A stretch of 64,000 bases of DNA. Origin: a virus. Below are positions 16,934 to 26,538 of the stretch, one piece after another (within the stretch, counting starts at the first letter, position 1; each line of letters starts with the position of its first letter). Made by a program: the position numbers and the translations under genes. The stretch is from IMG/VR virus record IMGVR_UViG_3300042197_004918, positions 109,818 to 173,817 of that record; one strand, written 5' to 3'. The notes below the pieces were generated by a model. That model was not told where the DNA came from, did not search any database, and saw only the letters and a list, made by a program, of their open reading frames with translations.

Positions 16934-17010
16934 GGTCACGTAGCCCAACGGCAGGAGGCGGGAGTCTTAGAAGCTCTACAGTGGGGGTTCAAATCCCTCC
17001 GTGACCACCA
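16934..17010 (+). tRNA. tRNA-Leu(TAG), short variable loop
   Basis: GGAGT-CTTAGAA-GCTCT, CCA. Confidence 0.88.
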
Positions 17011-17431
17011 TTTTGTTTTTTCTTCTCCAGTTTGGTGTTATGGAATGGCAATTAGGACATAGAAGTTTTAAGTTTTGGTTTTGATTATTTTTCTTGTTTC
17101 CATCCACATGATGAACCTCAAGCGTTATTGGTTCTCCCAACCAATCCGCAGTCGAGCATCGTTCGCATTTTAATCCTCTCTCTTTAATGAGACAGTTTCT
17201 ACGAGCGGTTGCGGAAGAATAATCTTCTAAAGATTTCAAAGATTTACCCTTATTCCACAGTTGATGTGAAAAATGACTTATATCAAGATTCAATCGTTCA
17301 ATATGAAGTTTAACGGACCCCTGAGTCCCGCCGGCTTGAACTAATCCAAGATTTTTCAAAACTTGACTATAAGCACGACTTTTGGAAACAGCAACTTTTA
17401 ATTCTTCGTCTGAGTATGTTCTTTTTTTCAT
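16976..17431 (-). CDS. HNH homing endonuclease, ends antisense inside tRNA-Leu(TAG)
   Basis: CxxC..LEVHHVDGN..NN...NL.LLCPNCH; start reassigned to MKKRTY. Confidence 0.9.
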   Translation of the reverse strand: MKKRTYSDEELKVAVSKSRAYSQVLKNLGLVQAGGTQGSVKLHIERLNLDISHFSHQLWNKGKSLKSLEDYSSATARRNCLIKERGLKCERCSTADWLGEPITLEVHHVDGNKKNNQNQNLKLLCPNCHSITPNWRRKNKMVVTEGFEPPL

Positions 17432-17487
17432 ATCAATAAATATGAAACGGTAGACGAATAACACAATATTTATGTGTCAACCATTTT

Positions 17488-17731
17488 GAAAACGTGAGCG
17501 TGATAAAACGCAATGGGAACTAGACCACAACGAACCGGGAAGAAATGAAAGGTCGATAAACTATAGTTCTCATGTCGATTGAGGCGGTGCGATAATCCGA
17601 TGGCGAGCGGACGCTCGTTGTGATTGGAAACAATCATACTATGGGGAACTAAGCGGTGATATATCACAAGGCACCCATAGCGCAGGGCCAGTCTTAGACA
17701 CATACGGGTCCGAACCCCGTCGTTTTCACCA
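17488..17731 (+). ncRNA. 244-nt tRNA-ended structured RNA of unknown class
   Basis: Acceptor GAAAACG/CGTTTTC-A-CCA, D-like arm, T-arm ACGGG-TCCGAAC-CCCGT, ~170 nt internal helices. Confidence 0.65.
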
Positions 17732-17733
17732 TT

Positions 17734-17966
17734 TTGAAGTAGTAGGCTTAGAAGCAGCCATCTTTAATCAGCGAATCGAAACGCTGGCGACGACGCCTCC
17801 GTGCAACACCGACATTACGATTGGATGTTGTGAACGAGGTGATACATAAGAAGATATAGAGAGATAATAGTCTTGTGTATTGCCGTCCAGTATCTCCGCA
17901 GAAAGTAAACGGATACTCCGTAACTGGTAAGGTCCAATTATTCCTTGGCGTAAAAGCAGACTTCAA
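17734..17966 (+). ncRNA. 23S rRNA GTPase-centre (H43-H44) mimic RNA, copy 1
   Basis: GTAGGCTTAGAAGCAGCCATCTTTAA ... GCGTAAAAGC closed by TTGAAGT/ACTTCAA. Confidence 0.75.
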
Positions 17967-17969
17967 TAT

Positions 17970-18044
17970 CCATCCGTCGCCTAACTTGGTATGGCATCTC
18001 ATTTGGGGTGAGAAATAATCTCGGTTCAAATCCGGGCGGGTGGA
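17970..18044 (+). tRNA. tRNA-Pro(TGG), copy 2
   Basis: TCTCA-TTTGGGG-TGAGA, C1:G72, A73. Confidence 0.88.
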
Positions 18045-18047
18045 CCT

Positions 18048-18315
18048 GATTAGAAGAAAGTAGGCTTAGAAGCAGCCATCTTTTAAAAAGTGACGAGTGG
18101 AAAAAGTATCTGTTGCAACAGAGAAATAAGCGTAACGGGTTTGTCAAGTCCCCGACGTATAACCACAGGGAATATAAATCCAAAAAACGATGTAAATAGT
18201 TACGGTGGGACAAGCAAGGTTGACCAACTAATGTAGAATAACGAGTGTCTAAGGGGTTCTACAAATGACTATTTTACCCTTTAACAGTCTTTGGCGTCAT
18301 AGCATACTTCTAATC
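18048..18315 (+). ncRNA. 23S rRNA GTPase-centre (H43-H44) mimic RNA, copy 2
   Basis: GTAGGCTTAGAAGCAGCCATCTTTTAAA ... GCGTCATAGC closed by GATTAGAAG/CTTCTAATC. Confidence 0.75.
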
Positions 18316-18320
18316 TTTAT

Positions 18321-18391
18321 AGCGTGGCTACTGGGTAGTGCGGAAACTCCAAATCTCTGCTTCGTCGGTTCGATTCCGACTCACGCTGCCA
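18321..18391 (+). tRNA. tRNA-Trp(CCA) with reduced D-arm
   Basis: Loop CT-CCA-AA, G73, CCA; D-arm only CTAC-TGG-GTAG. Confidence 0.75.
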
Positions 18392-18422
18392 GTGGTGTCA
18401 GTAACACAAAACTATTGATTAT

Positions 18423-18538
18423 CGCAGTTAGGGCAAAGATACGAGCCGCCACGGTATGGACTGTGGAGGGGTGTGTGAGACGAGATTTGACGCTGGAATC
18501 TATCACTGTTAACAGGTTAAAGTCCTGTAGCTGCGACC
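18423..18538 (+). ncRNA. Pro-like tRNA derivative with ~45-nt variable region
   Basis: CGCAGTT/AGCTGCG-A-CC, stem CCACGG-TATGGA-CTGTGG, T-arm ACAGG-TTAAAGT-CCTGT. Confidence 0.5.
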
Positions 18539-18546
18539 TTAATTTT

Positions 18547-18619
18547 CGGGATGTAATGTCAGTGGCAGACGGCCGAGCCTGGAACTCGGAGGTCGCAGGT
18601 TCGAGTCCTGTCATCCCGA
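18547..18619 (+). tRNA. tRNA-Pro(TGG), copy 3, C33/A37
   Basis: CCGAG-CCTGGAA-CTCGG, C1:G72, A73. Confidence 0.8.
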
Positions 18620-18686
18620 CCGTGTGAGTGTGCATACAGAACTAATCGGGACAAATGCCGAAAAGTAATCCGAGTTCACATATAAT

Positions 18687-18758
18687 GGTCTGTTCGTCTA
18701 TCGGCTAGGACGATGCCCTTTCAAGGCGTAAAGATGGGTTCGATTCCCATACGGACTA
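18687..18758 (+). tRNA. tRNA-Glu(TTC), no encoded CCA
   Basis: ATGCC-CTTTCAA-GGCGT. Confidence 0.9.
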
Positions 18759-18760
18759 CA

Positions 18761-19009
18761 GTTTAACACGGTCGATCTATAGCGGGTGTAGAAATACATC
18801 TGAGGAAGTTCGCGCCACTAAAGCAGTTGATTGGGAGAATCGGCCGAGAGCAGAAATGCCGGTCGCAAAGACAGCCGATTCGTTAATACCACACAATAAG
18901 TGCAAGCCAAACAGAGCCGAGGGTAGTGCTTCCCGTTATGGTAGGCTCGGGTTGGTGCATAGTCAAATTATAGAATAAAACAGAAGCGCGGCTACATGAT
19001 ATGTTAAAC
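18761..19009 (+). ncRNA. rnpB: RNase P RNA, minimal form
   Basis: P4 halves GAGGAAGTTCGCGC (18802) and ACAGAAGCGCGGCTA (~18980) pair with the bulged U; P1 GTTTAACA/TGTTAAAC; P2 TCTATAG/TTATAGA; P3; P15/16 region. Confidence 0.88.
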
Positions 19010-24966: not shown

Positions 24967-25224
24967 ATGAAAACAAAACTGTAGAATTGTAAAGAAGTCG
25001 TGTTTCACTTCAACAAGGGTCACCTGGCCAATCCAGAGATTCCTATGTGGGTGTTAAAAACAAAAGGCGAAAGCTACTATGTGAATCACGTCACCGCGAG
25101 TTGTTCTTGGACAACCAAGGAAACTCCCGACAATCCTACAACCAAAGGTTCTTTGAAGTTTAAGAACGTGGATGTGGAAATCAGTGAAGATAGAGAAGCG
25201 ACAATTTTTGCGTCTGTAGTTTAA
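24967..25224 (+). CDS. hypothetical phage protein
   Basis: FHFNKGHL..PMWV.K.KG..YYVNHV..TKETPDN..TKGS; 3' end overlaps the suppressor tRNA. Confidence 0.65.
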
Positions 25225-25284
25225 TGGTCAGAACTGGCGCCTCTAAAACGCCGTGTGTGGGTTCGACTCCCATTGGACGCACCA
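25210..25284 (+). tRNA. amber suppressor tRNA (CTA)
   Basis: GGCGC-CTCTAAA-ACGCC puts CUA at 34-36; canonical D and T arms; A73, CCA. Confidence 0.78.
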
Positions 25285-25576: not shown

Positions 25577-26538
25577 GAAAGACCTTAGATTAAAAACTCA
25601 ACTGTATGATTGATACACAAATTAATCCGTTTACTGGTGACGATAGTGCGGTAAGACCGATGTGGGGTTGATTTAATCCACGTAGTTTTGAGGTGACTTA
25701 TCATCCTCACGTTTTGTTGATTGTTCTTTGTAAGTAGAATTTGGGAGGCCTGACTCCCTTCAAGATAAACCGTCGTAAGACGGCTAAAGCAGAAACCCCC
25801 TAACGGGACTGCGCCACAGTAATGTGGACACTCAGGCAACTGACGAATCAGTGTCTTTCACTCAAAAGGTGGAAGTATGTCTGAAGCTGGATTGGTAAAT
25901 GGTGATTGAGGGTAACACTGTAAATCATCTACTAACGGTACCGCCGAGCACTACTAATTCCTAACGGAACAGCCAAGAATAAGATTCAAGTCAAACGTAT
26001 AGATACAAGTCCGCAAGCAAGTGTTTATATGTAGAATGATAGAGAGTGGCCCAGGGTAACCGAGGACATAATCTTGAAATTCGGTGAAGTATCCGCAAGA
26101 GAAACACAAATGGTGTGTGGTATATTGGTTCCCAAAAGGAATTGATGTCACAAGCAACGCACGTCATTGTTAGGTGCATATTATATCATTGTTAGATAAA
26201 CTATATACAAAAAAGCCAAGTCGTTGCTTGTGTTCGTCGAAAAGAACGTAACTCTGAGGCCGTAAGGTAACTCAGACAACGAAGCGCTCGCAAGGTGTTA
26301 GTTGTTGATCCGAGTTTGGACGTGGTCCGCAAGACCTAATTGCTCGCAAGGCAACCGTTTGAATAGAGGTTGATTAGATGGACATTAAAGATGAAAAGCC
26401 GCATCTCTAAAAAGGCCGTTCTGTCAAATACAGACATAAACCGTAAGGTTGTGGATGTGGATACGTTGGGAAAGCAGCCCGCAAGGTTGTAATAATCCAA
26501 TCAAAGGTTGACACGAAACACTGTAGTCTCAGGTTTCA
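25577..26538 (+). ncRNA. large ornate ncRNA, GOLLD-like
   Basis: ~960 nt without a credible ORF; own promoter (TTGACG-N16-TATAGT at 25523); terminal helix; about 10 GCAA/GTAA-capped hairpins; flanked by tRNAs. Confidence 0.62.

Follow-up and report, generated by a model that had tools for sequence, protein, structure and literature searches.

Two tRNA-array genes in a viral genome encode RNAs that resemble the GTPase-associated centre of 23S rRNA and belong to a large phage RNA family

In the bacterial ribosome the GTPase-associated centre of 23S rRNA (E. coli 1051–1108) is formed by the top of helix H42 together with H43 and H44; two of its adenines, A1067 and A1095, are exposed and make contacts with factors and thiostrepton. 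Its fold is autonomous, and it is the tertiary structure that the ribosomal protein uL11 recognises (PMC6239185). Off-ribosome RNAs that imitate a ribosomal protein's site on rRNA have been described as mRNA leaders (L1, L10, L20, S15), and phages and prophages carry large structured RNAs of unknown function, GOLLD and ROOL (RF02032, RF03087), typically beside tRNAs. Phage T4 likewise has in its tRNA cluster two small stable RNAs, species 1 and 2 (rnaC, rnaD), which are released with the tRNAs and whose function is also unknown. Phage-borne copies of host RNAs that divert or replace the target of a host factor form a further group, in which pseudo-ToxI copies an antitoxin RNA and nuclease-resistant phage tRNAs replace those that are attacked. 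The present report concerns two RNA genes, copy 1 (17732–17968) and copy 2 (18049–18314), both on the + strand of a 64,000-nucleotide (nt) stretch, hereafter the window, that is part of a 174-kb virus record in IMG/VR (IMGVR_UViG_3300042197_004918, positions 109,818 to 173,817). Both genes lie in a tRNA array, both pair like the rRNA centre, and the two are paralogues within a large family of phage RNAs that is undescribed to date.

The two copies are recognised by a 21-mer at 17742–17762 and 18060–18080 (+ strand), for which there was no further site in 64 kb even allowing 3 mismatches and no match in any of 100 dinucleotide shuffles, and by a second motif that follows at 17945–17958, 183 nt past the first 21-mer, and at 18291–18304, 211 nt past the second. 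Sequence common to the copies is restricted to this core (one block of 25 identical nt and one of 23 nt with 83% identity), and no similarity was detected between their inserts. The surrounding array comprises 24 tRNA genes at 14.9–26.7 kb, every one on the + strand according to ARAGORN, and the fit of the two units into it is close: copy 1 begins 2–3 nt past a sequence ending in CCA (17729–17731) and stops 3 nt short of tRNA-Pro(UGG) (17970–18046, ARAGORN; Rfam tRNA 46.1 bits), while copy 2 begins 2 nt past that tRNA and stops 5 nt short of tRNA-Trp(CCA) (18321–18391, ARAGORN). Each unit is closed by a terminal helix of its own, 17734–17740 with 17960–17966 in copy 1 and 18048–18056 with 18307–18315 in copy 2, and the minimum free energy of the whole unit, expressed as a z-score against shuffles, was −2.85 for copy 1 and −0.35 for copy 2. 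Open reading frames overlapping the two units extend across tRNA genes and had no Pfam match. An initial annotation, made from the sequence of the window alone, had claimed the twofold 21-mer, the individual terminal helices and the tRNA or CCA-ended flanks, and all of these are present as described. Its spacing of about 180–205 nt to the second motif was roughly right, with 183 inside that range and 211 slightly beyond it, and its helix-rich inserts hold for copy 1 only, because copy 2 folds no better than shuffles. Its expectation that each copy would give two short partial matches to large-subunit (LSU) rRNA in Rfam failed, since none appeared even at E ≤ 10.

Beyond the window the family is extensive. 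When IMG/VR was scanned for exact matches to the 18-nt H43 core, at least 117 stretches were returned, almost none of them 23S rRNA, and a second scan with the 3′ motif added at least 86 further loci; the 3′ motif was also found in 88 contigs from 185,579 species genomes, about 45 of these being confirmed by the model, so that the two IMG/VR pattern scans and the bacterial-genome scan together yielded at least ~190 distinct family sequences. The bacterial-genome carriers, mostly contigs of metagenome-assembled genomes with some isolate genomes, come from Bacillota, Bacteroidota, Proteobacteria, Chloroflexota, Nitrospirota, Actinomycetota and others. Cultured carriers were found with a 54-nt query from a consensus-like member, and four were verified, Cronobacter phage GAP32, Pseudomonas phage pf16, Xanthomonas phage XacN1 and Aeromonas phage 4_4572, in all of which the RNA lies in unannotated intergenic DNA; GAP32-like giant phages of Serratia, Erwinia, Pectobacterium and Yersinia are further carriers by BLAST only. 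When 17430–19000 was compared by blastn with GenBank phages, only tRNAs matched, E 1e-5 being out of reach for a shared core of this length, and exact scans with the 5′ parts of both copies and with a neighbouring protein found no near relatives of this phage. A covariance model, R1, was made from 28 short IMG/VR members, excluding the window, with the structure set by hand from rRNA. Over the window R1 gave exactly two matches, both full length (model positions 1–171), at 58.7 bits (E 6e-16) for copy 1 and 74.9 bits (E 8e-21) for copy 2. A genuine 23S centre, taken from contaminating rRNA in a GenBank phage record and scored with the insert skipped, reached 62 bits on R1, and the family core is therefore rRNA-like in sequence and structure. 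Both copies also have what identifies a member apart from this core, namely a closing stem unlike rRNA in sequence and ending at the 1051/1108 boundary, an insert past 1090, a U-rich linker, the H44 hairpin, an A at 1101, and a place in a tRNA array on the tRNA strand 2–5 nt from tRNAs.

Several results bear on whether any described RNA, or rRNA itself, could account for these sequences. Nothing in Rfam 15 matched the two units, either at the gathering score over the window or at E ≤ 10 over 17400–19000, a range in which RF02032, RF03087 and group I and group II introns were likewise without a match, and at the gathering score the 12 loci with the best members contained tRNAs and one ROOL only. 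No description of the family was found in the full-text literature, including the GOLLD and ROOL structure papers and a 2023 survey of phage structured RNAs. The flanks of the two units are tRNAs, with no LSU match at E ≤ 10 and no continuity with the neighbouring parts of 23S rRNA (the lower stem of H41/H42, and H45); a true 23S fragment reads straight through the domain, unlike the window copies. The sarcin-ricin loop, H69, the A loop, the 16S 530 loop and others, searched as motifs entered by hand, were absent from 1.8 Mb of family loci, and rRNA contamination is therefore excluded. Some records were set aside as non-members: Paenibacillus phage Pd_22F (locus L123, MZ092003.1 at ~83.3–84.7 kb), which supplied the true fragment just mentioned, holds contiguous, unannotated genuine 23S sequence at the end of the record, and several short 'phage' records of 2–7 kb (Staphylococcus, Listeria, Escherichia, Klebsiella) are plain rRNA.

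The family follows one plan, which reads 5′ to 3′ as a variable closing stem (P1, corresponding to the upper part of H42), H43 bearing the A1067 loop, a junction, an insert and the H44 hairpin, and which includes the lone pair 1082:1086 and the pair G1087:C1102; past the H43 core and the rRNA-like junction members diverge for 23–333 nt and then rejoin at the conserved 3′ motif. Over the two alignments examined 91–92% of cells were paired; in the structure-blind MAFFT one the figure was 92%, as against 69% after shuffling, and the covariation score was 0.42 as against 0.10; shifting the 3′ partners by 1–3 columns left just 29–54% of cells paired, and no shuffle reached the observed values. In a model alignment of 91 members there were double changes at every pair of P1, the base of H43 covaried, with pairs 1057:1081 and 1058:1080, and so did the lone pair, which was UA in 44, CG in 20 and AU in 5. 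Pair 1087:1102 was GC in 81 members, CG in one and AU in one, and the last two are the window copies themselves (C17769:G17959 in copy 1, A18088:U18305 in copy 2), which are therefore compensatory variants of each other and of the family. Conservation of the loops was read under a control for search bias, using for the H43 loop only members found by the 3′ motif (n = 113) and for the H44 loop only members found by the 5′ motif (n = 89). In H43 this gave U1065 at 92%, U1066 at 98%, A1067 at 90%, G1068 at 83%, A1069 at 96%, A1070 at 84%, and G1071, C1072 and A1073 at 99%; in H44 it gave G1093 at 100%, U1094 at 99%, A1095 at 93%, A1096 at 74%, U1097 at 46% and A1098 at 100%, with an A at 1101 in 98%, where rRNA has U. 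A1088 is essentially invariant across the family, as are G1071, C1072, G1091, C1092, G1099 and C1100, which we take to be the residues of the inter-helix triples. Position 1061 is U in half of the members and a purine mismatch in the rest, and is variable in natural rRNAs too (PMC6239185). From this conservation the core would adopt an rRNA-like tertiary fold.

Compared with the 23S centre, then, the helices are identical in order, and lone pair 1082:1086, pair 1087:1102, the H43 loop and the G/U/A frame within the H44 loop are all shared, but the phage RNA is a free-standing gene with a 23–333 nt insert past 1090, an A in place of U at 1101, relaxed positions 1096 and 1097 and no uL10 site. 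The closing stem, free in sequence, varies from 5 to 15 base pairs (bp), whereas the length of H42 is fixed in rRNA (PMC1919483); being variable in both respects, it indicates that only the minimal uL11/thiostrepton domain has been copied, without the uL10 site lower in H42. A family signature of A at 1101, a U-rich linker and a GAGU-type junction is present in GAP32 as well, and enterobacterial 23S rRNA has GAAAG at this junction. That the signature is kept in phages of very different hosts suggests a single origin followed by spread among phages, and a universally conserved partner, as opposed to repeated capture from hosts.

The comparison with the other systems is less close. Ribosomal protein leaders are cis-regulatory 5′ untranslated regions (UTRs) in cellular ribosomal protein operons and usually loose structural mimics, unlike the phage RNAs, which are near-exact sequence copies situated in tRNA arrays without a nearby ribosomal protein gene; no uL11-binding leader in Rfam matched the units, which lie between tRNA genes and not in a ribosomal protein 5′ UTR. 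GOLLD and ROOL share the phage setting but are not rRNA mimics, and they form RNA-only cages (bioRxiv 10.1101/2024.12.08.627333). The window has a GOLLD of its own at 26108–26535 (+ strand; full length, 211 bits), directly followed by two tRNA-Ser genes, and a tRNA array of another viral contig contains both a family member and, ~3 kb away, a ROOL (335 bits, L084:12810–13403, − strand). The T4 RNAs were rejected as members, since the best R1 score over the T4 tRNA region was 5.9 bits with filters off. To our knowledge there is no described case of a phage RNA decoy that copies a functional centre of rRNA.

The R1 alignment places each part of this plan in the two copies. In copy 1 (~233–237 nt) the P1 strands at 17734–17740 and 17960–17966 enclose an H43 mimic at 17741–17763, with its loop at 17748–17756, the A1067 equivalent at 17750 and a basal stem one pair shorter than the consensus; there follow the junction, equivalent to 1082–1090, at 17764–17772, an insert of 172 nt (17773–17944) that enters past 1090 in the 5′ strand of H44, and, at 17945–17959, the U-rich linker, the H44 hairpin mimic with loop GUAAAA (17950–17955) and the equivalents of 1101–1102. 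Copy 2 (~266–268 nt) has its P1 strands at 18048–18056 and 18307–18315, an H43 mimic at 18058–18082 with loop 18066–18074 and the A1067 equivalent at 18068, a junction at 18083–18091 in which U18083:A18087 is the 1082:1086 pair, an insert of 198 nt (18092–18289), and a UUU linker with the H44 hairpin mimic at 18290–18305. Because the loop of the latter reads GUCAUA (18296–18301), the A1095 equivalent of copy 2 is a C.

The main insertion point in the family is past position 1090, in the 5′ strand of H44, and the inserts are mostly idiosyncratic and without a common core, although some modules recur. One of these, module A, was found in 37 of 184 members including copy 1, where, at 17912–17934, a covarying helix of 3 bp leads through an asymmetric internal loop (AC / UAAG) to a hairpin whose tetraloop is UAAC. 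Its outer 3-bp helix is fully paired in 31 of 34 cases, with several pair types, and its hairpin loops are UAAC, GAAA, UAAA or GAGA. The module resembles a GNRA-type tetraloop beside a variant of the 11-nt tetraloop receptor, which we offer as a lead only. The insert of copy 2 had no detectable relative among the family members compared. A helix closing the insert was only weakly above control (mean run 3.7 as against 2.7 bp) and is not claimed as a family feature. About 9% of members, among them L157, L172, L192, L197, L173, L175 and L210, have besides the H44 insert another hairpin, which interrupts the H43 3′ strand between the 1077 and 1078 equivalents. With these data, the central proposal of the initial annotation, a selected RNA family mimicking H43 and H44 and not debris, is upheld by the full-length R1 matches and by covariation across the 91 members, the compensatory differences that it saw in the closing stems extend to all P1 pairs in the family, and its statement that the RNAs fit no recognised named family agrees with the Rfam results for the units and the best members. 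Inserts and flanks, for which it had allowed that contiguous rRNA or a self-splicing intron might be found, matched neither. Its view that only two loops are conserved is right for the loops but too narrow, as the whole 58-nt core is kept, including the junction and the presumed triple residues, and the inserts that it called unrelated are so between the two copies, but the module in copy 1 is common to ~20% of the family.

Genomic context was counted for 71 members from the first IMG/VR scan. There were tRNAs in 59 of the 71 loci, the nearest being co-oriented in every case, and 43 members had a tRNA within 100 nt, many at 0–13 nt; in the other 12 loci the examined stretch contained no tRNA. 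In GAP32 and XacN1 the RNA gene sits between protein genes, and in XacN1 (L122, AP018399.1) it is found outside any tRNA array, directly downstream of an annotated 2′-5′ RNA ligase gene. No protein neighbour recurred, the largest cluster covering 6 of 145 loci, and no uL11 gene (PF00298) was found in this record or in the four cultured carriers; any partner of the RNA would therefore be a host component.

From established tRNA processing, both units would most likely be transcribed together with the tRNA array and released from it, by RNase P cleavage at the 5′ end of the next tRNA and by 3′-end trimming of the previous one, so that processing of tRNA-Pro would fix where copy 1 ends and where copy 2 begins. 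The two ends of the released RNA would then rebuild an autonomous 58-nt GTPase-associated centre, with the variable domain inserted in the 5′ strand of H44. Given the specificity of uL11 for this fold, the likeliest reading, to which we give about even chances, is that the folded core binds host uL11 away from the ribosome. The RNA could in that case soak up uL11 as a sponge, or form with it a free particle presenting the A1067/A1095 surface. The wider interpretation, that a stable RNA, made by phages across many bacterial phyla, reconstitutes the uL11-binding GTPase-associated centre off the ribosome and so serves to manipulate host control of translation, we put forward tentatively, as somewhat short of an even prospect. 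Under such translation control, uL11 might be drawn off ribosomes, blunting the RelA-dependent stringent signalling that uncharged phage tRNAs would otherwise provoke, or RF1-dependent termination might be altered, or an immune effector aimed at this rRNA domain might be soaked up, and functions specific to a lineage would come from the variable insert. A connection between TAG recoding and uL11-dependent RF1 termination was dropped as unsupported, there being no sign of such recoding in the window. Suppressor tRNA-CUA genes occur in 13 of 203 family-bearing viral loci, a frequency given here without a base rate for comparison, and the window itself has one at 25210–25284 (+ strand; an amber suppressor, called Pyl by ARAGORN).

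Several observations weigh against this interpretation. The C at the A1095 equivalent of copy 2 is rare in the family (A in 83 and C in 1 of 89 members), and the overall fold energy of copy 2 is, as noted, no better than that of shuffles. Inserts of 23–333 nt are the rule, though a pure sponge needs none, and the insert at H44 could interfere with uL11 binding; it enters 1–2 nt from A1088, a residue which we presume to be near the uL11 interface of the crystal structures. The second hairpin at 1077/1078 could interfere in the same way. The benefit to a lytic phage of titrating uL11 is moreover speculative.

It is also possible, if unlikely, that the RNA is a decoy or platform for a reader of the same surface other than uL11, diverting its ligand from ribosomes with or without bound uL11; candidates include a translational GTPase (EF-G, EF-Tu, IF2, RF3), RelA with deacylated tRNA, the tRNA elbow, a thiopeptide, and a toxin, of a defence system or a competitor, aimed at this rRNA domain. 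In favour, conservation of A1067 and A1095 is 90% and 93%, although both are exposed bases that make contacts and form no helix. The genes sit in tRNA arrays, which in phages probably make good the loss of tRNAs to host defences, and their genomic context would imply high expression. For a toxin acting on this domain there is at least one precedent, the bacterial toxin Tre23, which ADP-ribosylates H44 at 1095–1098 and blocks the EF-G GTPase (PMC8661411). Within that target window, however, 1096 and 1097 are the least conserved positions of the H44 loop, copy 2 lacks the adenine at 1095, and the 1.8 Mb of family loci contain no mimic of the sarcin-ricin loop, the second half of the factor site. 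It also counts against a decoy that we know of no anti-phage system aimed at this rRNA domain.

No more probable, in our estimation, is that the core is an RNA-only architectural module, an rRNA fragment captured once that serves as a compact, ion-stabilised three-way-junction scaffold without a ribosomal ligand, and that the actual function resides in the insert which it holds and protects, one example being self-assembly of the ROOL and GOLLD kind. That inserts are the rule and are modular would be explained in this way, the GNRA-like tetraloop of module A with its presumed receptor-like internal loop is typical of RNA-RNA assembly, and GOLLD and ROOL occur in the same arrays. The autonomous folding of the centre is equally in favour (PMC6239185). 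Against a scaffold stand inserts that lack a common core, and the shortest member (L117, 86 nt overall), whose insert is a 23-nt hairpin only; drift would also be expected at exposed loop positions, yet these remain rRNA-like across phages of many phyla.

A cis-acting element of the tRNA operon, whether a processing guide, a spacer fold or a sensor coupling array expression to ribosomal protein level, would suit the many loci with tRNAs 0–13 nt away, but we regard it as improbable given the 12 of 71 loci without a tRNA in the examined stretch, the GAP32 and XacN1 genes between protein genes, the presence of two divergent copies in one array, and conservation far above the needs of a spacer. 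Captured rRNA debris, assembly contamination or chance similarity, which could be entertained in that the core is nearly identical to 23S rRNA and GenBank 'phage' records do contain true rRNA contamination, is already refuted by non-rRNA flanks and a P1 that closes exactly at the domain boundary, by at least ~190 distinct members with covariation and a family-specific signature, by loci free of other conserved rRNA motifs, and by a 21-mer for which no chance match is expected.

The array around the two genes has some further features. Upstream of copy 1, 17488–17731 (+ strand) has at its end a T-arm-like sequence and the CCA of 17729–17731, with no tRNA called by ARAGORN. The inter-tRNA spacers 18392–18546 (155 nt) and 18622–18686 (65 nt), on the + strand, had no Rfam match and may hold other small RNAs. 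Just past the tRNA-Glu of the same array, 18774–18995 (+ strand) matches archaeal RNase P RNA (RF00373) weakly, at 32.6 bits and E 3e-7 against a gathering score of 84, with its P4-like ends aligned, and may be a reduced phage RNase P-like RNA. An HNH endonuclease reading frame (Pfam HNH, 22.6 bits) at 16976–17464 lies antisense, on the − strand, and overlaps the 3′ end of tRNA-Leu (16934–17010).

The family is abundant and spans phages of many phyla, and among the unexplained structured RNAs of phage tRNA arrays it constitutes a third large class beside GOLLD and ROOL. In it, a tertiary fold that is among the best studied in RNA is available as a set of natural variants whose inserts sit at defined sites. 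Since tractable phages carry it (GAP32 of Cronobacter, pf16 of Pseudomonas putida, XacN1 of Xanthomonas citri and 4_4572 of Aeromonas), its function is directly testable. If binding of uL11 or of a factor is true, no viral copy of a functional rRNA centre would have been known before these RNAs, which would point to an unrecognised route by which phages disturb the host ribosome, the stringent response or immunity directed at ribosomes.

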